Shown here one piece after another: positions 7,562-53,847 of a stretch of 64,000 bases of DNA. The stretch is from contig JAZNJG010000142.1 of the NCBI GenBank assembly GCA_045577945.1, positions 1,516-65,515 of the forward strand, read 5' to 3'. The notes beneath the pieces were generated by a model. That model had not been told where the DNA came from. It worked only from the letters and a program-made list of their open reading frames with translations, and did no database searches. Position 1 is the stretch's first letter; every line of letters starts with the position of its first letter. This DNA is from Bacilli bacterium (GTDB lineage: Bacteria; Bacillota_I; Bacilli_A; ML615J-28; CAG-698). Position numbers and translations under genes: made by a program.

Positions 7562-7595
7562 GAGAAGAGATTAAATCTCTTCTCTTTTATTTTTT
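7561..7595 (+). terminator. terminator after dda
   Basis: 11-bp stem 'agagaagagat/atctcttctct' + 'tttatttttt'. Confidence 0.65.
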
Positions 7596-8001
7596 AACTT
7601 AGTTGCGCTTTTAATAAAGCTTTTACTTTTAACATATGTGATGATATCTCATCCAAAATTGCATTAACACCTCTATAAGTATTAATATCATCTATACCTA
7701 TTTTAATTTCATCAGCTAAATTTAATAAGAATCGAATCATTGATTCTGTGTTATTAAAATCTTCAACATAATATTTAGTAGATTCTATCTTAAATATATT
7801 CTCGATTGATTTTAAAGAATTAGTTTCTTCTGCCATAAAATATCTTTCCATCAAACTATCTATAAAATCATCAATTGGTTCAGCAACTTCATCCATAAAT
7901 TCATGTAATTCTAAAAATTGTGAACCTGTTAATTTCCAGTGTATTAATTTTGCAGATACCTTAAAAGCGTGTAATCTTGCCACCACATCTTTCATTTTCA
8001 T
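7594..8001 (-). CDS. Dps/ferritin-like protein
   Basis: 'VSAKLIHWKLTGSQFLELHEFMDE' resembles the Dps helix-A/B motif 'HW.V.G..F..LHE'. Confidence 0.45.
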   Translation of the reverse strand: MKMKDVVARLHAFKVSAKLIHWKLTGSQFLELHEFMDEVAEPIDDFIDSLMERYFMAEETNSLKSIENIFKIESTKYYVEDFNNTESMIRFLLNLADEIKIGIDDINTYRGVNAILDEISSHMLKVKALLKAQLS

Positions 8002-9460: not shown

Positions 9461-11491
9461 GTGTATCTAATAATGGATTTAATGAATGATTTATTTGGGA
9501 TTGATGAATCGGAAGATAAAATTATTTCTCTTCTTAAAAGATGTGATGATTGTTATAACAACTCTAATTGCTATTACATATTAAACGAACAAGATGTTAG
9601 TATACTATCAGATATGTCATTAAATTATAATTGTAATATAGAAGTTACTGATGATATTTATGATGAAATCTATTTTAATATTAAATCAAAATATCCTAAC
9701 AACACATACTTCAATAAAGTTGGTTCAAATGTTAAGTCAGGAAAAATAAAATTAGATATACCAATGGGCTCAGCAAGTGAATTAAAAAAAGGTGATTGGG
9801 ATAAATGGAAACTACCAATTGAGTATGTAATTAGTAATAAATTAGACGGAGTATCATGTAGGCTTTATTATGAATATGGTAAATTAGTTAAAGCTGTTTC
9901 ACGTGGAAATGGTTATGAAAGTCAAGATATCACTAAACACGTAATGAAGATTAAAAATGTTAAAAAGCAATTAAATCAAAATATTAATATTAAAATTAGA
10001 GGTGAAATTATCGTTCCAAAAACTAATATTAATTTAATGTTAGATGAAATTGAAAATGAAACTGGTGCGAGACCAAAAAATCAAAGAAACTCGGTTAGTG
10101 GTTTTATTAATAGTAAAAATGGTGTTGATTCAGTCGCAAGAAATGTTAATTTTATAGCTTATAAAATTGAAGAATGGGGTAAATCTGAATATGAGATGTT
10201 TAAGTATCTAGAGCATGAACTAGAATTTGATACAACCGAATATCATTTAATAGATGGTAATTATACTGAAGAGAAGCTAGTTAATATATTAAAAGATGTA
10301 AAAGATAACTATACATATGAATGTGATGGATTAATTATTACTCAAAATATAACTCAACCTGGTTATGAAGGTTATGAAACAAATTCTATCAAAAGAAAGT
10401 CAAGTCGAAAGTTTAAAGTTGGTTTAAGTGATAATATAACTACATCAGAAGTTATCAGTATTAATTGGAATATTTCAAAAGATGGTTTATTTAAACCAGT
10501 AGTTCAAATCAAACCTGTACAATTAGCAGGAGTAACAGTTACTCAAGCAACAGGTCATAACTATAAAAATATTATAGATAATAGAATTGGTAAAGGTGCA
10601 ATTATTACAATATCTCGCTCAGGTGAAGTTATCCCGTGGATTCAAAATGTTATTAAACCGTGTGAAGATAATATTGATAATTATGACTTACCGAATTCAC
10701 AATTATATAAAATATCTGGTGTTGATATTAAATTTACAAATATTATAACAGAAGATGATTATGATATAGATAGTGAAGTAAAATTTTACAGAAAAGAGCA
10801 AAATATTAAAAAATTAGTTTATTTTTGTAACTGTTTAGATGTGGAACAAGCTGGAGATGGTAACATTCGTAAATTAACCAATAATAAAGATCTAGTTGGT
10901 GAGAGTTTAATACCTAAAATATACAGTATTAAAGATTTAATATTAGAGCCAGTTGAAACATTTATATCAACTATAGGTGTTAACGGTCGATTATTTTATA
11001 ATTCATTACATCAAAAATTAAAAGAATGTACTGAATCTCGATTTTTTGATGCAGTTGGTTGTTTTGGAAGAGGTATTGGTGAAACAAAATTAGATAAAAT
11101 ATATAATAGATATCAAACATTAAATGTATCTTTAGAACAAGTTTTATCAACACCAGGTTTTGCTGAAAAAACATCTGAACAATATAATAATCATATGATG
11201 AATTATTTTAATTGGGTTGACTGGTTAAACAATAATAATATTCATTTAAAAACACCTGATTTATATAGCGGTGAGTGTAGTGATTTAAGTGTATGTTTTA
11301 CTGGTGTTCGTGATTCAAATATAGAGAATTTTATTAAATTAAATGGTGGTAGAATTGTATCAAGTGTAACGAAAGATTGCAATTTACTAATATGCGATTC
11401 ATTAAACAGTAATTCAGGTAAAATGAAAAAAGCTATAGAAAAACAAATTGAAATTATTAATTATGAAGAAGCGTGTAGGAGGTTTTGTTAA
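9461..11491 (+). CDS. ligA: NAD-dependent DNA ligase (LigA family)
   Basis: adenylation motif 'NKLDGVSCRLYY'; 'SRGNGYESQDIT'; 676 aa with a C-terminal BRCT-like region. Confidence 0.85.
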   Translation: MYLIMDLMNDLFGIDESEDKIISLLKRCDDCYNNSNCYYILNEQDVSILSDMSLNYNCNIEVTDDIYDEIYFNIKSKYPNNTYFNKVGSNVKSGKIKLDIPMGSASELKKGDWDKWKLPIEYVISNKLDGVSCRLYYEYGKLVKAVSRGNGYESQDITKHVMKIKNVKKQLNQNINIKIRGEIIVPKTNINLMLDEIENETGARPKNQRNSVSGFINSKNGVDSVARNVNFIAYKIEEWGKSEYEMFKYLEHELEFDTTEYHLIDGNYTEEKLVNILKDVKDNYTYECDGLIITQNITQPGYEGYETNSIKRKSSRKFKVGLSDNITTSEVISINWNISKDGLFKPVVQIKPVQLAGVTVTQATGHNYKNIIDNRIGKGAIITISRSGEVIPWIQNVIKPCEDNIDNYDLPNSQLYKISGVDIKFTNIITEDDYDIDSEVKFYRKEQNIKKLVYFCNCLDVEQAGDGNIRKLTNNKDLVGESLIPKIYSIKDLILEPVETFISTIGVNGRLFYNSLHQKLKECTESRFFDAVGCFGRGIGETKLDKIYNRYQTLNVSLEQVLSTPGFAEKTSEQYNNHMMNYFNWVDWLNNNNIHLKTPDLYSGECSDLSVCFTGVRDSNIENFIKLNGGRIVSSVTKDCNLLICDSLNSNSGKMKKAIEKQIEIINYEEACRRFC

Positions 11492-12045
11492 ATATGTCAA
11501 ATGAAAAAGAGATAGTATATAATTATATTAAAAACGATGATGTCTATATACTGGGTGAATTTGATAATACAGTTTCTCAAAATATAATTGCCCTACTACC
11601 ACAAATTATTGAAAGTAAGATAAATCAAAAGCATGCTGAAATTAATTTCTATATTAATTCTTGTGGTGGTCAAACAGATATATTATTTTCTCTATCATAT
11701 TTTATCGAAAAAGCTAAACAAGCTGGTATTACTGTTAATACCCATGTTATTGGTGATGCTTTTTCAGCTGGTAGTTATCTTGCAGTACAAGGTAATTATA
11801 GGTATATGAATAGATATAGTAACCAGTTAATGCATTTTGGTTGGGTTCCAACTGTAGCTGAGACACCAAAACAACTAGAAAGAAATCATAAAATGGTTAA
11901 TGATCATTTTAATAATTTAGTTGATATCTATTTAAAATATACTAAATTAACAAAAGCACAAATAAAACAGTTTATGAATGATGATAATTGTTACTTGAAT
12001 GCAGAAGAATGTTTAAAATATGGATTAATTGATGAAATTATTTAA
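11485..12045 (+). CDS. ClpP-like serine peptidase (S14 family)
   Basis: 'INSCGG' (cf. INSPGG); 'GDAFSAGSYLAVQG' with a Ser nucleophile; 'MHFGW' His. Confidence 0.6.
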   Translation: MLNMSNEKEIVYNYIKNDDVYILGEFDNTVSQNIIALLPQIIESKINQKHAEINFYINSCGGQTDILFSLSYFIEKAKQAGITVNTHVIGDAFSAGSYLAVQGNYRYMNRYSNQLMHFGWVPTVAETPKQLERNHKMVNDHFNNLVDIYLKYTKLTKAQIKQFMNDDNCYLNAEECLKYGLIDEII

Positions 12046-13465: not shown

Positions 13466-15631
13466 ATGAAAATAAGTGAAAATAATAATGAAATTGAAAC
13501 ATCTTTAAATAATTCTAAGAATTTTACAATTAAAGCATCACCAAAAGCTTTTAAAATTCTTTCAAGTGGGTTATATTCTAATAAAATTAGAGCAATTATA
13601 CGTGAATTATCTTGCAATGCATATGATGCACATATTGCAGCAAATAATCCTGAGCCATTTATAGTTCATCTACCTTCACGTCTAGATAATAGTTTTTATG
13701 TTAAAGATTTTGGTACAGGTTTATCTGAAGAAGATATCATGAGTCTGTATACAACATATTTTGATTCAAACAAGACAAATTCAAACGATTTTGTTGGTGC
13801 ATTAGGTTTAGGTTCTAAATCACCATTCTCATATACAGATTCTTTTATAGTAGAAAGTCGTTTTAATGGTAGAAAAACACTATATCTAATATATCTAGAT
13901 GAAAATGAATTTCCATCTATATCAAAAATTGAAGAAAGTGATACAGATGAACATTCTGGATTAACAGTTAAATTTTCAATTAAAGAAAATGATTTTAAAG
14001 ATTTTACAGATGAAGCAGTGTTTGTTTTGTCACCTTTTGAAATTAGACCAAAAATAGTTGGTAGTTATGATAATATTAAATTACATAGTAAGTTAGAATT
14101 TATAAATGACTACTGCCTTAATTCAAATGAATATCGCTATTTTGGTTTACATGCTTTTATGGGTAATATTTTATATCCAGTTAATCTTAAAGAATTAGAC
14201 TTACAAGAAAATATAATTCAATTTTTAAAAAAACGAAATATTATAATTAAATTTAATATAGGTGATCTTGATATAACACCATCAAGAGAGCAATTATCGT
14301 ATATTAAATCAACAAAAGAAGCACTAGTTAAAAAAATTAACAGTACAATTGACAATATCATTAATAAATACGCAATAGATATTAATAGTAGTGAAGATAC
14401 TTTTAGTATGATACAATCATTTAATTCACTATTCGATGATATACGAGCAATTATATATCATAAAATTGATCGTGATAAATTTCAATTTGATGATAAATTA
14501 TATAGTAAAGATCATAATCGCTTTTATTGTAATTTAGGTCATATTGTTAAAAGTGATATAAAGTTAGATGGTATAAAGAGTTTTAAAGTTGTCGAAACAG
14601 AAAGACGTACTAAGAGTAAACTACCATATTTAACTAAAGTAAATTGTAATCTATTTAATATACCCAAGAATAAAAGCTTTTATATTTCATTTAATAAAGA
14701 AGATGATAATAAGTTTAAATTGAGTGAAATTTTTTATTCTTATCTAATAAGTGTTTCAACATATAAGAATTCAAATATAACAGATGATGATATTATTCGT
14801 TATATTAAAGATAATTACTTTATCACTAATATATTGTATGCTAAAGATTTAGTACCTGAAGAGGAAGAAGTTGATCAAGATAGACCTTTAATGTATCTTA
14901 ACGATATGTCTTATGGCAATACACATGATTTAAATAGTTATTTACAACCATATACTCAAATTCAGTTTAGTGAATATAAGGGATTTGATAGTGTTGAAGA
15001 AATTAAAAATGATAATAGAACGTTTTTAATTGCTTGTGATAAATCTAATATCTTAAAAAAGGATGGTAGTAAGCTTATTAATAATGATGCTGAATCTAAA
15101 TATTATAAATTTATATATAGCATATTTACAAAATACTACCCATCATATAAACTTTTATTCTGTCGAAAAAAAGCAATTAAATATGTAGAAGAAAAATTTA
15201 AAATACCTTATTTTTTTGATTTTGCTGAAAGATTGTTAAGAAAGCAAAAACATATTAGAGATCAAATTATAGATATGTATAAAGATGTTGAAGAAGATAA
15301 TAGTCTTCTTGAAAAAGTATCTAAATCACTCGATGCAACAAAATTAGAAAATATAAATGATAATAAATTGAAGAATATTATACTAAAATATAGATCTTCT
15401 AATTATGATAAATTTAAAAATAGGTATGCAATAAATAGAGAAAATATATGTAGATTATATAAGAATGTTAAAATTACTAATGAAAATATATCTAATAATG
15501 ATTATATAAGAATGTATGATAGTGTTTTCCATCTTGCATGTAATTTATGGACTAGTGATATAAGACACCAATCTCAAAATATAATTGATCTGGCTAATTT
15601 AATATATGAAAGGAATCAAGCTAATGTATAA
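13466..15631 (+). CDS. rIIA: rIIA-like protein (GHKL ATPase-like N-terminus)
   Basis: 721 aa (T4 rIIA is 725 aa); N-box-like 'IRELSCNAYDAH'; followed by an overlapping ~318-aa gene, as in T4 rIIA-rIIB. Confidence 0.5.
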   Translation: MKISENNNEIETSLNNSKNFTIKASPKAFKILSSGLYSNKIRAIIRELSCNAYDAHIAANNPEPFIVHLPSRLDNSFYVKDFGTGLSEEDIMSLYTTYFDSNKTNSNDFVGALGLGSKSPFSYTDSFIVESRFNGRKTLYLIYLDENEFPSISKIEESDTDEHSGLTVKFSIKENDFKDFTDEAVFVLSPFEIRPKIVGSYDNIKLHSKLEFINDYCLNSNEYRYFGLHAFMGNILYPVNLKELDLQENIIQFLKKRNIIIKFNIGDLDITPSREQLSYIKSTKEALVKKINSTIDNIINKYAIDINSSEDTFSMIQSFNSLFDDIRAIIYHKIDRDKFQFDDKLYSKDHNRFYCNLGHIVKSDIKLDGIKSFKVVETERRTKSKLPYLTKVNCNLFNIPKNKSFYISFNKEDDNKFKLSEIFYSYLISVSTYKNSNITDDDIIRYIKDNYFITNILYAKDLVPEEEEVDQDRPLMYLNDMSYGNTHDLNSYLQPYTQIQFSEYKGFDSVEEIKNDNRTFLIACDKSNILKKDGSKLINNDAESKYYKFIYSIFTKYYPSYKLLFCRKKAIKYVEEKFKIPYFFDFAERLLRKQKHIRDQIIDMYKDVEEDNSLLEKVSKSLDATKLENINDNKLKNIILKYRSSNYDKFKNRYAINRENICRLYKNVKITNENISNNDYIRMYDSVFHLACNLWTSDIRHQSQNIIDLANLIYERNQANV

Positions 15632-18874: not shown

Positions 18875-19381
18875 ATGAAAATTCGTAAATTATTTAAATT
18901 CGAAGCAAGTCATATAGTAAGAAATTGTTCCAGTGAAAGATGTAAATATTCTGTGCATGGTCATAGCTATCGTGTAGAAGTATTTTTAACATCTGATAAA
19001 TTAGATAACGGGCAGATGATATATGATTTTGGTTTAATGAAACCTTCTGTAGGTAAATTTTTAGATAAATTTGATCATTGCTGGCATTATTGGAATGTTG
19101 AAAGCGAAGAATTTAAACAGTTCGTTCAAAATACAAACCAAAGATGGATTGAATTACCATTTTCGCCATCAGCAGAAAACTATGCAATTTATTTTCTTAA
19201 AGCTATAAATTATATTTTAGATCACAATGAAATGAAGAATGGAGAGGGTAATGTAAAATGTGTAGGGGTGAGAGTACACGAAACTGACACTGGATACGCA
19301 GAATCCGAATTAAATGATCTAAAATGGCATGATTATTATAATTTAGAAGATATCAAATTTTCACAAGAATTATCAAATTAA
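18875..19381 (+). CDS. queD: QueD (6-carboxy-5,6,7,8-tetrahydropterin synthase)
   Basis: 'KFEASHIV...CKYSVHGHSYRVEV' is the QueD/PTPS Cx3HGH zinc motif. Confidence 0.7.
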   Translation: MKIRKLFKFEASHIVRNCSSERCKYSVHGHSYRVEVFLTSDKLDNGQMIYDFGLMKPSVGKFLDKFDHCWHYWNVESEEFKQFVQNTNQRWIELPFSPSAENYAIYFLKAINYILDHNEMKNGEGNVKCVGVRVHETDTGYAESELNDLKWHDYYNLEDIKFSQELSN

Positions 19382-26145: not shown

Positions 26146-26925
26146 TTATAATTCCTCTATTGTTATATTTGTAATAACTTCATGGTCATCGTATTTTTCA
26201 GCTGTTTCTGGTTCGATATGGACACTGATTTTCTCGATAAAAGTATTTGCCTCATCATCAGTCATTTGAATATTCATATTCTTAATTGTTTTGCCTGAAT
26301 AAGATGGTCCGTATAAATAACCATACACTTTAAAAGAAAGATTTCTTGTTAATCTGCGACTTGTTTCATCATAAACACCTTCAAATTCATCAACCTTATC
26401 CATTCCTTCCCATGTTACTTTATATTCAGTATTATTAGATAAAAAATCGATATCATTTATATAGAATGAAAATGAAGGTGTAAAATAGGGTAAAATTTGC
26501 TCAATTAGTTGAAACAAATCGTTATTTCGAGTTGCGGTCATCCTAACATCAAAATTAAAAATTACTGGTATTCTATTTTTTATATACTTAACTTGTGAAT
26601 CTATACCCTGACATCTAATTGTATTTGATGAATTTAATAATCTTGATGAATCAGGTTCAATATTAGTTAAGTAATATGAAAGAATAGGAGATTCCATTTT
26701 AACCATAGCTTTATATAGATCAGGATTATCTTGCTGAACTACATTAGGATTTTTGATAATTGCATACCATTTTTCCTTATTAGAATATATTAAGGGTACA
26801 TTAATAATCTTTTTTGGTTTACCCTTAATATCTCTCGTAATTTTAAGCTCACTAAATATATAACCAAAAGAAGCAGTTACTTTTTTAATTATATCAGGAA
26901 AAAAATATTCTGTTGCGATAGGCAT
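26146..26925 (-). CDS. hypothetical protein (259 aa), isolated minus-strand gene
   Basis: long ORF. Confidence 0.45.
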   Translation of the reverse strand: MPIATEYFFPDIIKKVTASFGYIFSELKITRDIKGKPKKIINVPLIYSNKEKWYAIIKNPNVVQQDNPDLYKAMVKMESPILSYYLTNIEPDSSRLLNSSNTIRCQGIDSQVKYIKNRIPVIFNFDVRMTATRNNDLFQLIEQILPYFTPSFSFYINDIDFLSNNTEYKVTWEGMDKVDEFEGVYDETSRRLTRNLSFKVYGYLYGPSYSGKTIKNMNIQMTDDEANTFIEKISVHIEPETAEKYDDHEVITNITIEEL

Positions 26926-27037: not shown

Positions 27038-27508
27038 ATGTCAAATTTAAATAGACTTTTAGATAATACTATGCTCGCTTTTTTAGGAGGTAATGGTATT
27101 TTTGATGAATTAAATTTTTCGAAAAATATTGAAAATAGATTTACAAGTGTAAACTACCCACCTTGCGATATTAAAAAAATAGAATATAAAAATGATATAT
27201 GTGGTTATATTATTGAGTTAGCACTAGCTGGGTTTAAAAAAGAAGATATTAATGTAAGTGAATTTGAAGAAAGAGGTATCAGATATCTTCATATTGATAA
27301 TAATATTTCAAAAGAATCTACACCAGAAGATAGTGAATATAATACCACATATATTAAAAAATCAATTTCAAGAAAACAATTTTCTTTAGATTTTCAAATT
27401 TCAAATGAATTAGAAATCGCAGATGCTAAAATGGAGAATGGATTACTATCTATTAAATTAGATGTGATGAACACATCTTCTTCATCAAAACGCATTGAAA
27501 TAAAATAA
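27038..27508 (+). CDS. small heat-shock protein (Hsp20/alpha-crystallin family)
   Basis: alpha-crystallin-domain-like 'IIELALAGFKKEDINVSEFEERGIRYLHID...FSLDFQISNELEIADAKMENGLLSIKL'. Confidence 0.6.
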   Translation: MSNLNRLLDNTMLAFLGGNGIFDELNFSKNIENRFTSVNYPPCDIKKIEYKNDICGYIIELALAGFKKEDINVSEFEERGIRYLHIDNNISKESTPEDSEYNTTYIKKSISRKQFSLDFQISNELEIADAKMENGLLSIKLDVMNTSSSSKRIEIK

Positions 27509-27835: not shown

Positions 27836-29467
27836 ATGGTTGAATTAGTTGATATAGAGAAAGGAAAAGAAGCTAGAGAATTAATTCTTAATGGGGTTAA
27901 AAAACTAGTCGATTCAGTTTCTTGTACTATGGGAGCTGCTGGAAGAAACGTCTTAATTGAAAAACCATTTGCTAAACCTATTCTCACTAAAGATGGTGTT
28001 TCTGTTGCAAAACCTATATATTTAGAGAATAAATTTGAAAATATGGGTGCCCAGCTTGTAAAAGAGGTCGCTCAAAAAACAGTTGATGAAGTTGGTGACG
28101 GAACTACAACAGCAACAGTTTTAACAGGTGCTCTATATGAAAATTCTATTGAATATTGTAATAAAGGATTCAATCCTGTTAAAATTAAACGTGGTATTGA
28201 GAGTTATAAACATGAATTAATTTCTTATTTAGAAGAAAATAAAAAAACTATTAACAGTAGAGAAGATATTTTTAATGTTGCTAATATATCTGCAAATGGA
28301 GATAATGAAATTGCAGATGTAATTACAGAAGCAATCGATATTACAGGTGTTGATGGTGTTGTCACAGTTGAAAATTCATCTACTACTTTAACCAATATAG
28401 AATATACAGAAGGTTTGCAGTTTGATTGTGGGTATGTATCACCATACTTTATCAATAATCAAAAGAAACTTAATTTTGAAGCAGAAAATTGTTACTTGTT
28501 AATAATTTCTGGTCATGTATATACTTTTGATGAATTGGCGGACCCATTAACACTTGCACTACAAAATAATAAACCTATTGTAATCATTGCAAATGATTTT
28601 AGTCAAGATGTTATTAATACTTTAGTTAAGAATAGATTGCAACAAAATCTTAAAGTGTGCGCAGTAAGATTACCATATTATGGTGAAGAAAGAGAAGAAT
28701 TTGCTGAAGATTTATCAATTGCACTCAGTTGTCCATATTTAAATACTAATATGAAAGAAACTATTCGTGATAATAGTTTATCTAAGTTAACAGATGGAGA
28801 TAATAATTATATTTTAATTGATAAAATTACTGTTGATAAAAACACTATTACTTTCATTAATGAAAATAAAAATCAAGCTGATTTAGATAATCGAATTGAA
28901 TATATTAAATCAAAATTAAATAATTCTAAATCACCTGTTGAACAAAATACATTAAGAGATCGATTGTCTAAATTAACCGGATCAGTTGCTATTATTAAAG
29001 TCGGTGGTGCTTCTGAAATTGAAGTTCAAGAAAAGAAAGATCGAATTGATGATGCACTACATGCAACTAAAGCATCTATTAAAGAAGGTGTAGTTATTGG
29101 TGGTGGTATGGCTTTATTGAAAGCTGTAAATAGATTAGTTAAAAATCATAGAGATGAAACGGATAGAGAGAAAATAGTAGCAATGGATATTTTAAAGAAA
29201 TCTTTAATTAAACCAGCAACAACTATTTTATCAAATGCAGGTTATGATAGTGATTTATTATTTGATAATGAGATTATTGAAAATAATAATATTGGTTATG
29301 ATGTATCTAATAGCGTTATTCAGAAAGTTGATATGTTTGAGCAAGGTATTATAGATCCTATATTGGTTACAAAAACAGCTCTTTCTAATTCAATTTCTGT
29401 TGCTGGTTTATTAATGACAACAGAAACAGCTATTGCATTAAAAAATCAAGAAAACGATATTGTATAG
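27836..29467 (+). CDS. groEL: GroEL-type chaperonin (Hsp60)
   Basis: 'AAGRNVLIEKPFAKPILTKDGVSVAK', 'GDGTTTATVL', 'IIKVGGASEIEVQEKKDRIDDALHAT'. Confidence 0.9.
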   Translation: MVELVDIEKGKEARELILNGVKKLVDSVSCTMGAAGRNVLIEKPFAKPILTKDGVSVAKPIYLENKFENMGAQLVKEVAQKTVDEVGDGTTTATVLTGALYENSIEYCNKGFNPVKIKRGIESYKHELISYLEENKKTINSREDIFNVANISANGDNEIADVITEAIDITGVDGVVTVENSSTTLTNIEYTEGLQFDCGYVSPYFINNQKKLNFEAENCYLLIISGHVYTFDELADPLTLALQNNKPIVIIANDFSQDVINTLVKNRLQQNLKVCAVRLPYYGEEREEFAEDLSIALSCPYLNTNMKETIRDNSLSKLTDGDNNYILIDKITVDKNTITFINENKNQADLDNRIEYIKSKLNNSKSPVEQNTLRDRLSKLTGSVAIIKVGGASEIEVQEKKDRIDDALHATKASIKEGVVIGGGMALLKAVNRLVKNHRDETDREKIVAMDILKKSLIKPATTILSNAGYDSDLLFDNEIIENNNIGYDVSNSVIQKVDMFEQGIIDPILVTKTALSNSISVAGLLMTTETAIALKNQENDIV

Positions 29468-30194: not shown

Positions 30195-30728
30195 ATGAAT
30201 ATTTCAGATATAGTTAAACAAGTTATCAAACGTGGTATATCAAAACTCAATAGATTTCAATTAGAGATAGTTGAGCCACCTAAATTATCAAAAAATGATA
30301 AATTTACTGAATATGGTGTAAGTAATTTTATCAATGAATTAAATTTTCAATGCGAATCCGTTAGTATACCAGGTATTAATATCGAGACAAATGAGAATAT
30401 GTTTATTACACCTGTACGTAAAACAAATAGTGAAATTAAAGTAACTATACGTGTTGGTAAGGATATGAAAGAAAAGAAATTTTTTGATGCGTGGTGTAAT
30501 AATATAATTGATGAAGAAACATACATTGTTCAATATCTTGATAATATTAAAACTACAATTAATATATATAAGATGAATGATGACTTGAGTAAAAAATTAT
30601 ATGGTATACAATTAATTGATGCTTACCCAAAGACAGTTGGGGAAATTACTTTAAGTCAAAATAGTAATGAATATATGATTATAGATGTTAGCTTTGTATG
30701 TAGAAAGCAAAAATATATAAAATTATAG
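30195..30728 (+). CDS. hypothetical protein (177 aa)
   Basis: ORF. Confidence 0.4.
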   Translation: MNISDIVKQVIKRGISKLNRFQLEIVEPPKLSKNDKFTEYGVSNFINELNFQCESVSIPGINIETNENMFITPVRKTNSEIKVTIRVGKDMKEKKFFDAWCNNIIDEETYIVQYLDNIKTTINIYKMNDDLSKKLYGIQLIDAYPKTVGEITLSQNSNEYMIIDVSFVCRKQKYIKL

Positions 30729-31758: not shown

Positions 31759-32007
31759 TTGAAAGGTAATAACATGTATATTAAATATGTATTTGGTATC
31801 TTAATTATTATATTATTAATTTTTATGTTAATTAGATTTTGGGTTAATATATTTAATTCTGAAAAGAAAACTCATATTAGCGATAGAATTAATCATATAG
31901 ATAAGATTAATAAATTAGCTAAGAAAGTTAGAGCTAGTAAGAAAAAATATAAAAACTATAAGTCAAGTAAAGATGTAATTGATGAATTTATGAAAGGTGA
32001 AAAATAA
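31759..32007 (+). CDS. small membrane protein
   Basis: hydrophobic helix 'VFGILIIILLIFMLI'. Confidence 0.4.
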   Translation: MKGNNMYIKYVFGILIIILLIFMLIRFWVNIFNSEKKTHISDRINHIDKINKLAKKVRASKKKYKNYKSSKDVIDEFMKGEK

Positions 32008-33182
32008 TGTTTGAAGATTTTTTTTATGACGAAGATGGTAATATTCGTATGAAACGTGTTATCGGTGTAATAGTAACATTAGCATTTATTATTGCCTCGT
32101 TCCTATTATTTGATGGGGTTTGGGAGAATAATAAGGCATCAAACTATCAAATTAAACAGGCTGCAGTTTCTGGTAATTTAAGTGTTAAAAATGATGCTGG
32201 TGTATATGTTAAGTGGTTTGGTGATATTACTACATATCGAAAAGTATCTAGTTTAGATTTTGAAGAAGAAAATATTAAAGTTAGATTTAATGATGGTTCT
32301 GAAGCAGGTATCAAAGGTAAAGTAACATTTAGATTACCTACAAATCCTGATTTACAGAAAAAACTACATATTGAATATCATGATTTTGATAACGTTGTTA
32401 AAAATTTAATTAAACCTAATGTAGAAGAATCATTAAAACAAGCAGCAACATTAATGACAGCTGAAGAATCCTATTCTTCTGGAAGAACCAATTTTATTAG
32501 TGCTGCCGAACAACAAGCTAAATTAGGTATTTTTAAAACAATTTCTAAAGAATCAGATTCTGAAGATGGAACAGTAAAGAGAACAATTCGTGTAGCTTTT
32601 GATAGTAACGGAAATCCAATTATTCAAAAACCTACAATGTTAAAAGAATATGGTATTGAAATCACACAATTTACAGTGTCTGATTTTGAATTTGATGATG
32701 TCGTTAAAAATTTAATTGCTGAAAAGAAGAAGAAAGAACAAGAACAAGTAGTATCACGTTCTGAAGCTGAAAAAGCAAAACAAGAAGCAATTACAGAGAA
32801 AGAAAGAGGTGAAGCTCGTATTGCTAAACAAAGAGCAGATTCTGAAGTAATTAAAACAGCTGCTGTTATTGAAGCTCAAAAGAAAGCAGAGGTTGCGAAG
32901 CTTGAAGCTGAGCAAGCAAAATATGAAGCACAAAAAATTAGAGAACAAGGTGCTGCAGAAGCGTATGCTAATGAATTAAAAGTAAAAGCTGGTTTAACAC
33001 CATTAGAAAAAGCTCAAATTGAAAAAGAAACAAAAATCGGTATTGCACAAGCACTATCCAAAGTACAATTCCCATCAAGTATGGTTATTTCAGGTGGATC
33101 TAATAGCGGTACAAATCCATTTGATGCTGTTGGATTACAATCATTATATGAATTATCTGAAAAAATGTCTATAAAGAAATAG
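32007..33182 (+). CDS. SPFH/band-7 (prohibitin/HflK-like) membrane protein
   Basis: N-terminal TM segment; long Ala/Glu/Lys coiled-coil region typical of SPFH proteins. Confidence 0.5.
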   Translation: MFEDFFYDEDGNIRMKRVIGVIVTLAFIIASFLLFDGVWENNKASNYQIKQAAVSGNLSVKNDAGVYVKWFGDITTYRKVSSLDFEEENIKVRFNDGSEAGIKGKVTFRLPTNPDLQKKLHIEYHDFDNVVKNLIKPNVEESLKQAATLMTAEESYSSGRTNFISAAEQQAKLGIFKTISKESDSEDGTVKRTIRVAFDSNGNPIIQKPTMLKEYGIEITQFTVSDFEFDDVVKNLIAEKKKKEQEQVVSRSEAEKAKQEAITEKERGEARIAKQRADSEVIKTAAVIEAQKKAEVAKLEAEQAKYEAQKIREQGAAEAYANELKVKAGLTPLEKAQIEKETKIGIAQALSKVQFPSSMVISGGSNSGTNPFDAVGLQSLYELSEKMSIKK

Positions 33183-33198
33183 ATTATAGAGGTATATA

Positions 33199-33786
33199 AT
33201 GAGCAAATATATTATATATAGTTTTTATTGTATGGCATTAGTGATTGCAAATGTAATTGCAAATAGAATTGGACAAATAGGTTGGTTTTCTGTTGCAGGT
33301 AACCCACTAGCATACGTAACCTGTTTTTTATTCTGTGATATTATGAATGAAAAATATGGTGAAGTAGAAGCCAGAAAATTAGTTAATACAGGGTTTTTAG
33401 TTTCGATTGGGTATATGGTTTTATTATACTCAACATATCTAATTCCAGCAGGTGATTTACAGTACGATGAATCATTTAAGTTAGTTTTTAATAATAGCTA
33501 TAGAGCGGTTTTAGCGTCACTATGTGCATATCTAATTTCTAATCATATTGATGTTAAAATATTTAGTTATCTCAGACGAAAGAAGAAAGGTAAAGTAACT
33601 AGAAAAGTTATATCAACAATTATAAGTCAATTTATTGATAGCTCAATATTTGCGTTAGTTGCTTTTTTAGGTGTATTTGATCTAACATCTTTAGTATCAA
33701 TTATTATAAGCGAGTATTTAATTAAAACAATTATTAACTTATCTGAAACTCCAATTTATTGTCTATTAACAAGAAAGGGAAAATAA
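33199..33786 (+). CDS. YhhQ/QueT-family (DUF165) 7-deazaguanine precursor transporter
   Basis: 'ALVIANVIANRIGQIGWFSVAGNPLAYVTCFLFCDIMNEKYGEVEARKLVNTGF' matches the YhhQ pattern SN....LP..G...G...FP..F...D...E..G...AR; six predicted TM helices. Confidence 0.55.
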   Translation: MSKYIIYSFYCMALVIANVIANRIGQIGWFSVAGNPLAYVTCFLFCDIMNEKYGEVEARKLVNTGFLVSIGYMVLLYSTYLIPAGDLQYDESFKLVFNNSYRAVLASLCAYLISNHIDVKIFSYLRRKKKGKVTRKVISTIISQFIDSSIFALVAFLGVFDLTSLVSIIISEYLIKTIINLSETPIYCLLTRKGK

Positions 33787-34185: not shown

Positions 34186-34341
34186 ATGAAAGATATATTA
34201 AAAGGTATTGTATATGGATTTTGTGGTAGTGTTGCTGCTTACTTTGTATTCATGTTTTTTATCAACACTTTATTATGGTGGTGTACAGATGAATCAGAAA
34301 TGTTTTATCAACCTGTTTGGAATATAACAAAATTAATGTAG
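34186..34341 (+). CDS. small membrane protein (51 aa)
   Basis: ATG at 34186 after promoter TTGATT-16-TATAAT and RBS 'aaaggaga'; hydrophobic. Confidence 0.3.
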   Translation: MKDILKGIVYGFCGSVAAYFVFMFFINTLLWWCTDESEMFYQPVWNITKLM

Positions 34342-34469
34342 ATAAAACTATAATATTCACGGCACCCAAGGCCCGCAGTCACACTCGAACGACCATCATG
34401 ACCAGAACGAGCCCGCGAACCACAATGAGAACTATCGTTCCAACCACCACCAGAAAGCAAAACACCCAT
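34308..34469 (-). CDS. mini-ORF consisting of a decayed DGR variable-repeat copy (VR2)
   Basis: 54 codons, 'MGVLLSGGGWNDSSHCGSRARSGHDGRSSVTAGLGC...', in the same reading frame as the TR/VR1 codons. Confidence 0.3.
   Translation of the reverse strand: MGVLLSGGGWNDSSHCGSRARSGHDGRSSVTAGLGCREYYSFIYINFVIFQTG
34361..34466 (-). repeat. DGR variable-repeat-like copy 2 (degenerate)
   Basis: about 85 % identical to the TR; most differences are at TR adenines, a few are not. Confidence 0.6.
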
Positions 34470-34496
34470 ATAATTTTAAAAACTTTTATAAAAAAG

Positions 34497-34522
34497 AAAC
34501 AGCTCGTATCAACGAGCTGTTT
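34497..34522 (-). terminator. hairpin terminator downstream of the DGR target gene
   Basis: perfect 10-bp stem 'aaacagctcg/cgagctgttt', followed on the minus strand by 'cttttttat'. Confidence 0.5.
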
Positions 34523-34590
34523 AGGTTTATTTGAGACTGAGAGCTTTTAACTACTACGTAGTTGGGTCCCTGGACCTGAGGTCCCTCTCG

Positions 34591-35673
34591 CTACGCTTGG
34601 TTTATATTTGGACTACGCCCGCGGCACCCATCGCCCGCATTCACATGCGAACGACCAACAGCACCAGTACGAGCCCGCGAACCACAATCAGAACCATTGT
34701 CCCAATCACCACCAGCACGCAAAACATAACAAGCTCCGTAATATGCACCTTTTGATGTATCTTGTAATTGAGTCCATCCTGAGCCACCAGAAGCTGAAGG
34801 AGATTCTAGCCATTGCCAGAGATAGCCACACATTTCTTCACACCCGTAATTAGAAATCATTCTTCTACTCGCTGTATCTACGTGGCCACCAGAAGTTTTT
34901 GGATTTGGAGCAGCAGCACCATAAATTGAAGTTTTTTGATTAGATCCTTCAGCAGCGCATTGAAATTCTGTATCTCCTAGAGGTTGTTTCTTGACATACA
35001 TTAAATCTTCATAATGAAGAGGTGGGTTTCTTGAATCAGTTACTGTACCACCATAAACAGACATTGTATTGGTTCCAGTTCCAGATTGTAAATATATATC
35101 ACACCAGAAATTTAAGGGCTCAATATAAACCATACCTTCAGGCGAGCAGTGAGGGCGTCTATTCAAACACCAAACTGAAGCCGGTAAAATTTCTCCTGCA
35201 ATATAACCTGATAATGGGTGATCTGTAATTGTACCTACATTTACACATAATGTGTGAAATCCACCAATTTTTCTAGTATTATTAGCTGTGAATCCTGTCG
35301 GGTATGTTGAGTTTTTAGAACACTTAAATCCTATTTGACCATTATTATTATATATGTAAATATAATAATTTGCACCTGCATCTAATGTAGTCCCATTATC
35401 TAGTATATCTAATACATTTAATGTAGTATCTTCGGGTATTGAATAGAACATATCATTACCATCAACATTTAATCTAATAAATGTCCCAGCAGCTATTGTT
35501 AAAGTTTGTCTATCACTAGCTGACATAAAAGGTGTTGAGTATGCAGAAAAATCGACTTTAAAGTCTGCACTCGCTTTATTTTTAAGTGCATCAATGTCAG
35601 TATTCATTGTTGAGAGGGTATCTTTAAGAGTATCAACACGTTCAACAGGTATTTTACTTGTATTAACAACCAT
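34591..35673 (-). CDS. DGR target protein (putative receptor-binding/tail-fibre-like, C-type-lectin-type variable C-terminus)
   Basis: C-terminal 37 codons are the variable repeat; C-terminus '...AGGDWDNGSDCGSRARTGAVGRSHVNAGDGCRGRSPNINQA*' vs TR-encoded 'AGGNWNNSSNCGSRARNGNDGRSNVNANNGCRGR'. Confidence 0.8.
   Translation of the reverse strand: MVVNTSKIPVERVDTLKDTLSTMNTDIDALKNKASADFKVDFSAYSTPFMSASDRQTLTIAAGTFIRLNVDGNDMFYSIPEDTTLNVLDILDNGTTLDAGANYYIYIYNNNGQIGFKCSKNSTYPTGFTANNTRKIGGFHTLCVNVGTITDHPLSGYIAGEILPASVWCLNRRPHCSPEGMVYIEPLNFWCDIYLQSGTGTNTMSVYGGTVTDSRNPPLHYEDLMYVKKQPLGDTEFQCAAEGSNQKTSIYGAAAPNPKTSGGHVDTASRRMISNYGCEEMCGYLWQWLESPSASGGSGWTQLQDTSKGAYYGACYVLRAGGDWDNGSDCGSRARTGAVGRSHVNAGDGCRGRSPNINQA
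34615..34726 (-). repeat. DGR variable repeat (VR1)
   Basis: 112 nt; the 14 mismatches to the TR are all at TR adenines. Confidence 0.85.
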
Positions 35674-35683
35674 TATTTTTTTC

Positions 35684-36019
35684 CTATTTAATTAAAGTTT
35701 CAATTTCTTCTTTAGTAAACCCTATACGAAATATATATGCATTAGAGTCTTCAACGAATTCGTATTGATGACGAATAGGGCTTGTTAGTTTATTACCATC
35801 TTTATCTTCTTCCTCTATAATAATTTTATGAGTTTCATCTTCAACACCATCACCAACTAATTCTGTTTCTTGCCAAATAAAACGATTATCATAAGCTTCT
35901 TTTAATTTTTGTTTTCCATACATACCAAATAATTCAATACAGTTTAAGTAATCTTCTTTGGTATTAAAAAATTTAGGTAAACCTCTCATTAAACATTTCC
36001 TTTCTAATATTTTATACAT
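35684..36019 (-). CDS. hypothetical acidic protein (111 aa) upstream of the DGR target
   Basis: ORF; does not look like a basic Avd. Confidence 0.4.
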   Translation of the reverse strand: MYKILERKCLMRGLPKFFNTKEDYLNCIELFGMYGKQKLKEAYDNRFIWQETELVGDGVEDETHKIIIEEEDKDGNKLTSPIRHQYEFVEDSNAYIFRIGFTKEEIETLIK

Positions 36020-36073
36020 ATATTCAATAATATTTATACTAGAATCGGCTATGAATAATTGTTAAAAAAATAG

Positions 36074-36101
36074 TTGTTTTTTAATTTATTTATGTTATAA
36101 T
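36074..36101 (+). promoter_or_regulatory. sigma70-like promoter upstream of the DGR TR-RT unit
   Basis: TTGTTT-16-TATAAT. Confidence 0.4.
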
Positions 36102-36190
36102 CATAGATGTGATTATAAAAATCACAGGTTATAGGTTTACAATACACTGTAAGTTTTGCATAACGACGCATTACATACAAAGCAAAACCT

Positions 36191-36302
36191 TGTTTTGCAT
36201 GCTGGTGGTAATTGGAACAATAGTTCTAATTGTGGTTCACGAGCTCGTAATGGTAATGATGGTCGTTCGAATGTGAATGCGAACAATGGGTGCCGCGGGC
36301 GT
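36191..36302 (+). repeat. DGR template repeat (TR)
   Basis: AAY-codon-rich 112-nt segment 147 nt upstream of the RT; invariant template for VR1 and VR2. Confidence 0.85.
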
Positions 36303-36448
36303 GATATATTAACACCAATTTAGTTAATAGCCGAATCTATATTCCTTGGTATTAATTTACCAAAATAACACTAAGAAAGACTATCGAAGCTAGTAATAAT
36401 ATATGAACGTTTTGATAGTCTTAACCTTTATATAAAGAGAAGCATACT

Positions 36449-38119
36449 ATGAAGAGATATGGTAATTTTTGGGATAATATAGTTACAAAATCAAATATTT
36501 TATTATCATATTTAAATGCTAAAGTTGGTAAGAGAAAGAAAAGAAATGTAAGACGCTTTTATAAAAACTGGCGTGAAAATCTTGATAAAATACAACATTC
36601 TCTCAAATTTTTTACATTTAAAACTGGTCAATATAATAGCAAAGAATTATACGAACCAAAGAAAAGAGTTATATACATATTACCATTTAATCCAGATCGA
36701 ATCGTTCAACACGCAGTTATGAATGAAATTAAAAAGATCTGGAATAAAATTTTTATTAGCGATAGTTATGCTTGTCGTGACAAAAAAGGAATGCACCGAG
36801 GATCAAATAAAGTTAGAGGGTGGGTAAAGATTAATAAGTATTGTCTTAAAATGGATGTAAGAAAATTTTATCTTAATATTAATCATGAAATATTAAAGAC
36901 AATTATAAGAAAAAAGTTAAAAGATATATACCTTTTAAAAGTTTTTGATAATATCATTGATAGTTTTCCAGGTGAGATAAATGTTCCTATAGGAAATTTT
37001 ACATCTCAATGGTTTGGTAATCTATATATGAATGAACTAGATTATTATGTAAAACATACACTTCATTGTAAATATTATATTCGATATTGTGATGATTTTT
37101 GTTTATTTAGTAATAATAAACAACAATTACATGATTGGTCGGCTTTGATAAAGCAATTTTTAAAAGATAAATTACAATTAGAGTTAAGTAAAAATGATGT
37201 TTTTCCTGTAACAAGAGGTGTTGATTTTTTAGGTTATCGCCATTTTCCAAATAAAGTTTTAGTTCGAAAAAGAACTATTAAAAAATTTAAAAAAATTTTT
37301 AGAAAAATTGCAAAGAAAATTCAAGAAGATAACTACAATAATTACACATACATTCTTGGTTTTTTGAATTCATCTAAAGGTTGGTTAGATCATGCTAATA
37401 CTCATCGATTTAAAGAAAGGTGGAAAATTGAAGAACTAATTAAATTATTAAGAGTATGTGAATATAGTAAATTCAAAAAGCTATTCATATATGTTGCGAA
37501 TATACCTGCAAAAACATATATAATTAATGATGAGAGAATAAATGAGATTATTCAAGAAGCAAGAAGTATTAAAATTAACAAAACTCAGACAATGAAGAAA
37601 TCAATAAAAATAGATATTAGTAAATTAAAAAATTTTCAATACACACCATATGCTGAACCAGGTGATTGGATGAATTTGAGTGAACAATTTAAAATAAATA
37701 CTTTTAACGATATGGAATGTGAAAATTTATTTTTAAAAGAATTGGATATGAATAGTGAATTAAAGAAAGAAATCGTGTCATTATCAGATTTAATAGGTGC
37801 TAGTAAAATAAAATACCCAACTATTAAATTAGAAGAAATAATAGATATTGATGTACTAATACATAGTATGTATATAGCACCAAGTATTAAAAGTGAGGGT
37901 AAAGATTATGCACGATTTATAATTACAAAATTAGATAGTGATGAAAAGCTAACATTTACAACTGAAAGTGTATCTGTTGTTGATAGTGTAAAAAGAGTAT
38001 TAGCGAAATTTGATTCATTAAATATAAGTGAAGAATCTAGACCACTTATCAAATCTAGATTTGTATATGAATTTTCAAAAAAATCAGGTAGACGGTATAT
38101 AAAAATGATTTCTTTATGA
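36449..38119 (+). CDS. DGR reverse transcriptase with a ~200-aa C-terminal extension
   Basis: 'VPIGNFTSQWFGN' (DGR-type IGxxxSQ motif); 'YIRYCDDFCLF' (YxDD); 'VDFLGYRHF'. Confidence 0.85.
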   Translation: MKRYGNFWDNIVTKSNILLSYLNAKVGKRKKRNVRRFYKNWRENLDKIQHSLKFFTFKTGQYNSKELYEPKKRVIYILPFNPDRIVQHAVMNEIKKIWNKIFISDSYACRDKKGMHRGSNKVRGWVKINKYCLKMDVRKFYLNINHEILKTIIRKKLKDIYLLKVFDNIIDSFPGEINVPIGNFTSQWFGNLYMNELDYYVKHTLHCKYYIRYCDDFCLFSNNKQQLHDWSALIKQFLKDKLQLELSKNDVFPVTRGVDFLGYRHFPNKVLVRKRTIKKFKKIFRKIAKKIQEDNYNNYTYILGFLNSSKGWLDHANTHRFKERWKIEELIKLLRVCEYSKFKKLFIYVANIPAKTYIINDERINEIIQEARSIKINKTQTMKKSIKIDISKLKNFQYTPYAEPGDWMNLSEQFKINTFNDMECENLFLKELDMNSELKKEIVSLSDLIGASKIKYPTIKLEEIIDIDVLIHSMYIAPSIKSEGKDYARFIITKLDSDEKLTFTTESVSVVDSVKRVLAKFDSLNISEESRPLIKSRFVYEFSKKSGRRYIKMISL

Positions 38120-38210: not shown

Positions 38211-38297
38211 GGAGGCGTGCTGTAAGTGGTAGCCAGATCAGACTTAAAATCTGAGGGAGATTTCTCCGTGTGGGTTCAAGTCCCTCCGCCTCTACCA
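38211..38297 (+). tRNA. tRNA-Leu(TAA), long variable arm
   Basis: cloverleaf; anticodon loop 'cuUAAaa'; 3' CCA encoded. Confidence 0.75.
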
Positions 38298-38323
38298 TTT
38301 TAATAAATAATTACATAACAAAC

Positions 38324-38399
38324 GCCGACATAGCTCAACTGGTAGAGCAACTCACTTGTAATGAGAAGGTTGGGAGTTCAAGTCTCTCTGTCGGCACCA
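38324..38399 (+). tRNA. tRNA-Thr(TGT)
   Basis: acceptor gccgaca/tgtcggc; anticodon loop 'cuUGUaa'. Confidence 0.65.
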
Positions 38400-38412
38400 T
38401 TATTTTTTTTTT

Positions 38413-38487
38413 GGTCCCATCGTCTAATGGTTAGGACATCACCCTTTCACGGTGGTAATATGGGTTCGAATCCCGTTGGGATCACCA
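38413..38487 (+). tRNA. tRNA-Glu(TTC)
   Basis: 'cccuuucacgg' anticodon arm as in bacterial tRNA-Glu; T-loop 'ggttcgaatcc'. Confidence 0.75.
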
Positions 38488-38495
38488 ATTTTTAT

Positions 38496-38570
38496 TCCGA
38501 CTTAGCTCAGCGGTAGAGCAATCGGCTGTTAACCGATCGGTCATCTGTTCGAATCAGATAGTCGGAGCCA
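38496..38570 (+). tRNA. tRNA-Asn(GTT)
   Basis: anticodon arm 'atcgg cuGUUaa ccgat'; acceptor tccgact/agtcgga. Confidence 0.75.
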
Positions 38571-38579
38571 ATTTTTATA

Positions 38580-38650
38580 GGGATGTAGCTCAGCTGGTAA
38601 GAGTAGTAGTCTGATAAACTATAGGTTGTTGGTTTAAGTTTAGTACGAGG
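38580..38650 (+). pseudogene. tRNA-Ile(GAT)-like 5' portion without a matching 3' acceptor strand
   Basis: good acceptor-5', D arm and anticodon arm 'gtagt cuGAUaa actat', but no T arm or acceptor complement follows. Confidence 0.35.
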
Positions 38651-38674
38651 AGAGCTATTTCTTATATATTATAT

Positions 38675-38760
38675 GGGTGGGTTGCATAGAGGCTTATTGC
38701 AGCGGACTGTAAATTCGCCGTCTTCGGACATCGGTGGTTCAAATCCATCCCCACCCACCA
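38675..38760 (+). tRNA. tRNA-Tyr(GTA), long variable arm
   Basis: acceptor gggtggg/cccaccc; anticodon loop 'cuGUAaa'; T-loop 'ggttcaaatcc'. Confidence 0.75.
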
Positions 38761-39992: not shown

Positions 39993-40066
39993 TAGAGTGT
40001 CGTCTAATGGTAGGACATCGCACTTTGACTGCGACAATAGTGGTTCGAATCCATTCACTCTAACCA
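39993..40066 (+). tRNA. tRNA-Gln(TTG)
   Basis: acceptor tagagtg/cactcta; anticodon arm 'tcgca cuUUGac tgcga'. Confidence 0.7.
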
Positions 40067-41523: not shown

Positions 41524-41601
41524 CTCGTAGTTGCATAGTCTGGCTAATGCGCTTGGTTTGGGTCCAAGAGATCGGGAGTTCGAATCTCTCCTACGAGACC
41601 A
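41524..41601 (+). tRNA. tRNA-Pro(TGG)
   Basis: acceptor ctcgtag/ctacgag; anticodon arm 'cttgg uuUGGgu ccaag'. Confidence 0.7.
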
Positions 41602-41607
41602 TTTTAT

Positions 41608-41683
<76 letters not shown>

Positions 41684-41690
41684 TTTTAAA

Positions 41691-41765
41691 GGGAATGTAG
41701 CTCAGAGGAAGAGCGCTACACTGTCACTGTAGAGGTCGAGATATCGTAATTCTTCATTCCCGCCA
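41691..41765 (+). tRNA. tRNA-Asp(GTC)
   Basis: acceptor gggaatg/cattccc; anticodon arm 'ctaca cuGUCac tgtag'; atypical T-loop. Confidence 0.6.
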
Positions 41766-41774
41766 TATATTATT

Positions 41775-41848
41775 AGAGATTTAGTTTAGTGGTAAAACAT
41801 CGGTCTCCAAAACCGAAGTCAGCTGTTCAAATCAGTTAATCTCTGCCA
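41775..41848 (+). tRNA. tRNA-Trp(CCA)
   Basis: acceptor agagatt/aatctct; anticodon arm 'tcggt cuCCAaa accga'. Confidence 0.7.
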
Positions 41849-41855
41849 TTTATAT

Positions 41856-41929
41856 GGAGAGTTGACAGATCGGTTATGTGGAAGACTGCAAATCTTTTTA
41901 GAGGTGTTCGACTCACCTACTCTCCTCCA
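41856..41929 (+). tRNA. tRNA-Cys(GCA)
   Basis: acceptor ggagagt/actctcc; anticodon loop 'cuGCAaa'. Confidence 0.6.
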
Positions 41930-53215: not shown

Positions 53216-53438
53216 AGAGGAAGATATGTTTACAATTAAAGATTTGGTTGATGATTTTGAATCAAAAATTGGTTTGATACAAGATTGTCGAGTCGATAGA
53301 ATTAAAAAAGAACTTATTAAAGCTGGTTTGAATAAGGAACAAGCTGAATTTTTTGCTATGTTATGTGATGATTTGGAATCAGCTGGATTTAATCGTGGAT
53401 ATCAGACAGCATTGGAAATTCTAGATGACTCGTATTAA
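53205..53438 (+). CDS. hypothetical protein (77 aa)
   Basis: ORF. Confidence 0.35.
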   Translation: MKIREEDMFTIKDLVDDFESKIGLIQDCRVDRIKKELIKAGLNKEQAEFFAMLCDDLESAGFNRGYQTALEILDDSY

Positions 53439-53847
53439 TCTGGTAAATGTCGAAGAATTATCTGATCAACATTTAATTGCTGAATATAGAGAATTGCCTA
53501 GATGTATCAAACAAAATATTAACATATCAGATGCACCTAAAAAGTACTGTCTCAATAAAGGTCATATGAAATGGGCAAAGCTTCATTCGAGATGGTTAAT
53601 GAGAAGGTATTTAGATATTACATGGGAAATGCAATATAGAGGAATTAAAACAAACTACCCATTTTACAAGTTATATGAGATTTATGAAACTCAATACTAT
53701 ACAAAAGAATGTGATAATTGGTATAATCCAACTGATAGCGACATTCAACTATCGAAAAATAGAATTATTGAAAAATTTAATCTCAAACCAAATTGGTATA
53801 AATGGACCAAAAGACAACCACCTACATATTTAACAATAGAAAGATAA
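53425..53847 (+). CDS. denV: endonuclease V, pyrimidine-dimer DNA glycosylase (DenV)
   Basis: '[26 protein letters not shown]' vs T4 DenV '[26 protein letters not shown]'; 140 aa vs 138 aa. Confidence 0.85.
   Translation: [140 protein letters not shown]

Follow-up and report, generated by a model that had tools for sequence, protein, structure and literature searches.

A very probably functional diversity-generating retroelement of the Avd-less type in a T4-like phage

Diversity-generating retroelements (DGRs) have already been catalogued in the tens of thousands, and the core of the finding reported here is therefore ordinary. The locus in question lies within a stretch of 64,000 nucleotides (nt; the window) of contig JAZNJG010000142.1, from the assembly GCA_045577945.1 of a Bacilli bacterium, and raises a narrower question: is an element that lacks the accessory protein Avd, and whose target gene is encoded on the strand opposite to its template and its reverse transcriptase (RT), a working DGR, and how might it operate? 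A preliminary description of this DNA, made from the sequence alone, had called the element a complete and textbook DGR. The adenine-specific pair of template repeat (TR) and variable repeat (VR), the DGR-type RT and the target gene bear out that wording; the absence of Avd, an unexplained RT extension of 230 amino acids (aa), an uncharacterised partner gene and an orphan second VR do not. We conclude that a T4-like phage carries, at this locus, what is very probably a functional DGR of the Avd-less "target-TR-RT" type.

Mismatches confined to template adenines

The repeat arms were located by a repeat search and then recounted base by base, with P values taken from the hypergeometric distribution. 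The repeat finder returned the same inverted pair that had been described before, two arms of 112 nt each that are 87% complementary: the TR on the plus strand (36191-36302) and VR1 on the minus strand (34615-34726), inside the 3' end of a target gene on the opposite strand. The 1464 nt between the arms agree with the divergent orientation and the distance of about 1.5 kb given earlier. The base-by-base comparison yielded 15 mismatches (11 A>G, three A>C and one A>T) rather than the 14 of the preliminary description, whose three A>C and single A>T changes stand and whose A>G count, nine plus one, falls short. When the substitutions are tabulated by template base, all 15 are at TR adenines, so that 15 of the 25 adenine sites are changed and 87/87 C, G and T positions are identical, exactly the asymmetry that had been claimed; the probability that 15/15 mismatches land on adenines is 2.1e-12. 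Between VR1 and the end of the gene there remain 24 nt, made up of seven codons and the stop (34591-34614); VR1 is therefore not literally the last 112 nt of the coding region, as had been stated.

Translated in the frame of the minus-strand target, the TR reads VLHAGGNWNNSSNCGSRARNGNDGRSNVNANNGCRGR and is, as noted earlier, rich in AAY codons (10 of 37). Its adenines occupy codon positions 1 and 2 in 23 of 25 cases, the exceptions being a TCA and a CGA codon, and a stop codon cannot result from the substitution of a TR adenine. The potential diversity of VR1 amounts to 4^25 DNA sequences, or about 4e13 peptides, over 12-13 codons. Both TR and VR1 end in a GC-rich block of 16 nt, TGGGTGCCGCGGGCGT, which resembles the IMH* (mutagenic-homing initiation) element of DGRs and is identical between the two copies in the window.

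The gene that receives the diversity (34591-35673, minus strand) encodes an Mtd-like receptor-binding tail protein of 360 aa. It matches the Pfam family mtd_2nd, the second domain of Mtd, with an E-value of 3.5e-23 and a tail protein family in PHROGs with an E-value of 2e-51, and residues 54-353 align to the crystallised Mtd (PDB 1yu1) with an E-value of 3.7e-17, in accord with the earlier placement of the VR at the C-terminus of a putative receptor-binding protein. The TR peptide can be aligned to that of the DGR of phage BPP-1 over 32 aa without gaps, with 23 identities, and the 12 adenine-bearing variable codons match those of BPP-1 one-for-one; diversification is therefore directed at the positions known to contact the ligand in Mtd. 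On the basis of these alignments, the target is taken to be a full-length Mtd homologue, predicted to display its variable residues on a C-type-lectin (Mtd-like) fold. Just 3' of the target stop codon lies a weak 5-bp hairpin (GGACC-TCA-GGTCC, 34553-34565), and the gene is followed by an intrinsic terminator that is bidirectional (34497-34522). A scan of this AT-rich DNA for sigma-70 promoters was uninformative, with 27 sites found and 28 expected.

Reverse transcriptase, spacer RNA and accessory proteins

The open reading frame (ORF) adjacent to the TR (36449-38119, plus strand) encodes a protein of 556 aa that contains the DGR-type RT motifs reported for it, IGNFTSQ and YCDD, with the RVT_1 domain at aa 71-264. 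The core of the protein (aa 1-326; 36449-37426, plus strand) matches phrog_1423 with an E-value of 5e-99, and its best relative of solved structure is the RT of the BPP-1 DGR (bRT; PDB 8ub7; E = 6.7e-42), the alignment pairing aa 2-321 with residues 3-315 of 328; group II intron RTs are next among the solved matches (E = 1.8e-14). The protein is also 39-43% identical to RTs of crAss-like phages. A search with the RT provided 77 related IMG/VR loci (L001-L077; 41-54% identity), which match its residues 1 to about 340 only. These relatives were screened by self-alignment for adenine-biased repeats beside the RT, and such a pair adjoins the RT gene in 62 of the 77. All 62 have the same order on one strand, namely VR, a gap of 24-184 nt (834 nt in one locus), TR, a spacer of 102-204 nt and RT; set against these closest relatives, the window is the sole case with an inverted target and the sole case with two VRs.

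Between the TR and the RT gene lies a structured spacer RNA (36303-36432, plus strand) with two covarying helices and the conserved single-stranded motifs CCAAAAUAACAC, CUAGUA and GAACG. In the RNAalifold consensus of the relatives' TR-RT spacers there are 18 base pairs, 16 of them with compensatory changes, and the motifs common to the relatives are GAUAC-stem-GGCUGGA, GCAAAAUACACAACGGAG and stem-CUAGUAG...CGAAAG-stem. A covariance model (R1), built from 31 relatives with the window left out, matches the 64-kb window once, at 36290-36432 on the plus strand (42 bits, E = 1.8e-9), the helices being kept there via AT-rich replacements; further matches of R1 are to this phage as found in another sample and to a relative with 76% identity. 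The model matches neither BPP-1 nor crAssphage LMMB, and Rfam gave no family for the spacer region, its matches being tRNAs only. In its layout, a first stem-loop immediately follows the TR, a single-stranded stretch that is conserved comes next, and a long stem-loop interrupted by internal loops closes the 3' side. By analogy, this resembles the Avd-binding stem-loop, the primer/stop region and the bRT-binding stem-loop of the BPP-1 spacer (Sp; 10.1101/2023.10.23.563531); both are structured TR-RT spacers of about 140 nt, with one stem-loop on the 5' side and a long one on the 3' side.

No Avd was detected by Pfam among the neighbours of the cassette, a phmmer search with the Avd of BPP-1 gave nothing, and the 25 of 37 Pfam families listed for the window's 54 small ORFs do not include it. 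Of the 77 relatives, 76 encode, along with the RT, at least one of two unannotated proteins of about 100 aa, here called famA and famB, whose place is almost always directly after the RT. The basic famA (pI 8.3) occurs in 45 of the 77 loci, the acidic famB (pI 4.4 ± 0.15) in 57, and the two occur together, in the order RT-A-B, in 26. Translational fusions of famB to the RT are seen in five loci (L007, L053, L059, L072 and L077) and in two further proteins, P0005 and P0111; by the Rosetta-stone argument, such fusions speak for a physical association of famB with the RT. The window contains no free-standing famA. Its ORF at 35684-35989 on the minus strand is a clear member of famB (E = 1e-23), acidic (pI 4.8) and 101 aa long, or 111 aa if read from an alternative start at 36019; the rule in the clade is a position directly 3' of the RT, whereas here famB has been relocated to lie directly upstream of the inverted target. 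On these grounds we regard famB as a candidate DGR accessory factor.

The remaining part of the RT, a tail of 230 residues (aa 327-556; 37427-38119, plus strand), has no detectable homologues: an exhaustive search of 1.84 billion representative proteins gave none, tblastn against the 77 loci and the window returned nothing, and no significant match to Pfam, PHROGs or PDB profiles was obtained for the tail or for famA and famB. The tail is nevertheless clearly coding, since its frame is free of stops where the two alternative frames have 31 and 41 (chance 4e-10), and other samples retain it (protein P0127). The famA profile ranks the RT first among the ORFs of the window and aligns to its aa 457-508; this signal is weak, with an hhalign probability of 16% and with 13 to 49 of 20,000 shuffles scoring equally (p about 1e-3). 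A degenerate famA-like domain fused into the RT tail is thus possible but unproven. An alignment-free fold prediction of the 556-aa protein, with a pLDDT (predicted local distance difference test) of 35, taught nothing about the tail.

A second TR-homologous copy, absent from the preliminary description, is found on the minus strand at 34360-34464. This copy, VR2, is 105 nt long and lies within a 53-aa ORF (34308-34469) that has no Shine-Dalgarno sequence, 151 nt 3' of VR1 and beyond the bidirectional terminator. By the same repeat search and recount, it differs from the TR at 17 positions, 16 of which are TR adenines (P = 1e-11). Its homology begins at the same base as that of the TR/VR1 pair but lacks the final 7 nt on the 3' side; its flanks are unlike those of the TR or VR1, with a similarity not above that of shuffles, and its position is that of the TR slot in canonical relatives. 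VR2 is regarded as an orphan recipient copy that is probably inactive. Two possible origins were considered and gained no support: an old TR with its spacer, as R1 has no second match in the window and the flanks are not above shuffles, and a segmental copy of VR1 with its surroundings, again because of the flanks. Looking up exact copies of the RT, and of the three genes to the left of VR2, brought up no contigs.

Variation between samples and the rival explanations

Five short metagenome contigs from ENA and Logan (L078-L082), about 99% identical to the window, come from the same phage. In them famB is intact and so is the 556-aa RT, which shows four amino-acid changes; overall, at least three independent samples preserve a whole RT ORF, and most of the changes in it are synonymous. 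Their TR equals that of the window except for a G>A change at TR position 107 (window 36297), inside the GC-rich block; the VR has G at this position, and TR and VR therefore differ there in those populations. All five contigs end at or inside the target gene, short of the VR, which could reflect assembly breaking at the repeat or the variable region.

Only one other sample spans the VR, by way of a contig of 607 bp (L085) on which the 3' half of the target lies. Compared with the window, L085 has differences at 12 of the 25 TR-adenine sites, at one of the 87 other VR sites and at 14 of 494 flanking sites (Fisher P = 1e-8 and 5e-11), and the encoded target protein is identical outside the VR. 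Two genomes that are about 97% identical outside the VR thus differ at 48% of TR-adenine sites, a pattern that fits DGR activity since they diverged. A more distant relative (L083/L084; 76-86% identical) has the same divergent layout, with RT and TR on one strand and famB and the target on the other. Its TR is identical at 104 of 105 positions while the flanks fall to 76% identity, and all nine differences in its partial VR are at TR adenines; together with L085, these data fit retrohoming after the lineages split. In a further contig (L086; Logan SRR14160746), the target is 74% identical and, with famB, lies behind a T4 neck-protein gene and a gene of 324 aa; the pair does not face a TR-RT unit, so the target module has moved within these genomes. 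Scans of viral, metagenome and genome collections with degenerate TR/VR patterns gave no matches in any of them.

Several observations weigh against a DGR that is functional today, its current activity being something that we infer from sequence comparison. Avd, which is essential in BPP-1, is absent from the cassette. Eight identical substitutions are common to VR1 of the window and L085, and both synonymous TR-adenine sites carry G in VR1, VR2 and L085, neither of which is predicted by complete and independent re-randomisation. In the window, TR and VR1 agree throughout the IMH-like block, so that a donor/recipient distinction is not visible; the hairpin 3' of VR1 is short and poorly conserved, being partly kept in L086; and the role of famB is read from gene neighbourhood and fusions. 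Some of these points would suit a fossil element, in which VR1 and VR2 were diversified in the past, the machinery is now dead and the differences between samples are inherited old variants: the missing Avd, the shared substitutions, the weak downstream hairpin and the orphan state of VR2, partly decayed by one non-adenine change and the loss of 7 nt at its 3' end. However, a dead element would hardly be expected to keep its long RT frame open in independent samples, its TR nearly invariant beside diverging flanks and its spacer helices through compensatory changes, and the contrast between the window and L085 at TR-adenine sites also speaks against it; we consider this explanation improbable. 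An RT from some other retroelement or defence system (a retron, a group II intron or a DRT/Abi system), accompanied by a repeat that is an ordinary diverged duplication of a 3' end, is effectively refuted. It could appeal to weak matches to group II, Drt3a and retron models and to the label "retron-type", which such RTs often bear in PHROGs and in public records, but those matches are far under the curated NCBIfam cut-offs (102 bits vs 300 for group II, 57 vs 200 for Drt3a and 52 vs 235 for the retron model), and the bRT leads the solved matches by 27 orders of magnitude. Ordinary divergence, moreover, cannot give 15/15 and 16/17 changes on the adenines of one copy, and relatives of the RT carry TR/VR pairs of their own.

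The part played by famB is less settled. It may be a tail-fibre chaperone or assembly protein for the Mtd-like target, with the RT working alone or with its own tail, as its place immediately upstream of the target in the same orientation (in the window, in L083/L084 and in L086), the absence of an RT on the famB-target side of L086 and its acidity, unlike the nucleic-acid-binding Avd, would suggest. Against this, famB follows the RT and not the target in the canonical relatives, and it is fused to the RT in the seven cases listed above; we judge a chaperone function unlikely, though it retains appreciable weight. A broader proposal, which we advance tentatively and hold to be less likely than not, is that a large Avd-less clade relies on a different accessory set, comprising the basic famA, the acidic famB and a clade-specific spacer RNA. 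In the present element, the RT would have absorbed a famA-like domain into its 230-aa tail and famB would have moved beside the target, resulting in a compact, Avd-independent retrohoming system that acts on an opposite-strand target, with VR2 as the footprint of a cDNA that landed outside a gene.

Assuming that the element is a functional DGR, its cycle can be outlined with BPP-1 as the paradigm, to which the outline owes its account of priming in cis, of what famB and the RT tail might do, of the route of cDNA integration and of the effect on host range. Transcription of the plus strand would take in the TR and the structured spacer and would probably continue into the RT gene. The RT would bind the spacer RNA, probably with famB and perhaps with its own C-terminal tail, and copy the TR to cDNA, misincorporating opposite adenines. 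VR1, located in the 3' end of the mtd-like gene on the other strand, would then be exchanged for the cDNA, with the GC-rich 3' block and homology at the 5' end as guides. In this way, the variable codons on the ligand-binding face of the receptor-binding protein would be re-randomised and host specificity could change.

Comparison with known systems and the carrier phage

The BPP-1 DGR (mtd-avd-TR-brt) shares with the present element an RT homologous over the full length of bRT, a target homologous to Mtd, adenine-specific mutagenesis, much of the TR peptide with its 12 variable codons, and a GC-rich block ending the VR. It differs in possessing Avd, in an RT of 328 aa as opposed to 556, and in having neither an orphan VR nor an opposite-strand target, which in the window is 1.46 kb away from the TR. 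The carriers also differ, BPP-1 being a temperate podovirus and the phage described here T4-like, presumably lytic and AT-rich.

Several of these departures have counterparts in the survey of Wu et al. 2018 (PMC5758913), in which 29% of DGRs consist of a TR-RT core without accessory genes, lineage 3 lacks avd, and the components are on different strands in some elements. The present DGR is similar to the Avd-less elements of Architecture A and lineage 3, which have the same TR-RT core without avd and a C-type-lectin-type target, the comparison being one of layout. C-terminal extensions of up to about 150 aa occur in about 20% of DGR RTs, compared with 230 aa here, and just 34% of DGRs have GC-rich inverted repeats behind the VR (PMC5758913). 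The CH1 proteins of the same survey, which lack motifs and are found only in avd-less DGRs, are, as far as their description allows a comparison, like famB in being small and acidic (pI 4.7 for CH1, 4.4 for famB), but they are longer (160-169 aa vs about 100 aa). In crAssphage LMMB, an avd-less lineage 3 example (PMC7290462), the hypothetical protein encoded after the RT gives a marginal match to famB (11 bits, with an E-value of 3e-5 that refers to a search of two sequences), and neither of the two LMMB proteins is significant against the famA or famB profile. Lytic phages carrying DGRs have also been reported (PMC7981956). In view of these precedents, no unusual feature of the element is unprecedented in kind. 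A limited literature search found no paper describing a DGR in such an AT-rich T4-like phage.

Beyond the core finding, three results are of some value. The occurrence of a tip of the BPP-1 Mtd type, diversified at the same 12 positions, in a presumably lytic T4-like lineage shows how far the target module has travelled. Host range in T4-like phages is usually discussed in terms of the gp37 and gp38 fibres. Together with its 77 relatives, the element forms a group without Avd in which two unannotated proteins partner the RT, RT fusions recur and the spacer RNA covaries; this group offers a concrete handle on the priming and processing of cDNA in Avd-independent DGRs and could supply compact components for mutagenesis tools based on DGRs. 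Both the orphan VR and the inverted target lend themselves as natural tests of what retrohoming requires of its recipient site.

The window has a GC content of 25-30% and encodes hallmarks of T4: the gp15 tail sheath stabiliser (26146-26925, minus strand), a gp19-like tube protein (30195-30728), RegA (2404-2817), a clamp loader (1871-2362), a gp45-like clamp (8-367), rIIA (13466-15631) and DenV (53425-53847), as well as NrdD/NrdG. The carrier of the DGR is therefore a distant, very AT-rich T4-like phage, for which a DNA-level search revealed no close phage record. A tRNA cluster begins right after the RT gene (38211-38760, 39993-40066 and 41524-41929) and comprises ten genes, for Leu, Thr, Glu, Asn, Tyr, Gln, Pro, Met, Trp and Cys; an eleventh match, at 38586-38644, is weak (29.4 bits vs a Rfam gathering threshold of 29, covering model positions 8-63 of 71) and was missed by ARAGORN. 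Just to the left of the cassette are genes for an SPFH/Band 7 protein (32007-33182) and a YhhQ-like transporter of the Vut_1 family (33199-33786), and further left is a PTPS/QueD-like gene (18875-19381); a function related to 7-deazaguanine or queuosine may be indicated by these genes. Among the window's 54 small ORFs, one matches the Pfam family of the anti-CBASS protein Acb1 with an E-value of 8.6e-30. The phage also has an unusually rich set of proteostasis genes, with GroEL, HSP20, a ClpP-like protease and a ferritin-like protein (27836-29467, 27038-27508, 11485-12045 and 7594-8001).

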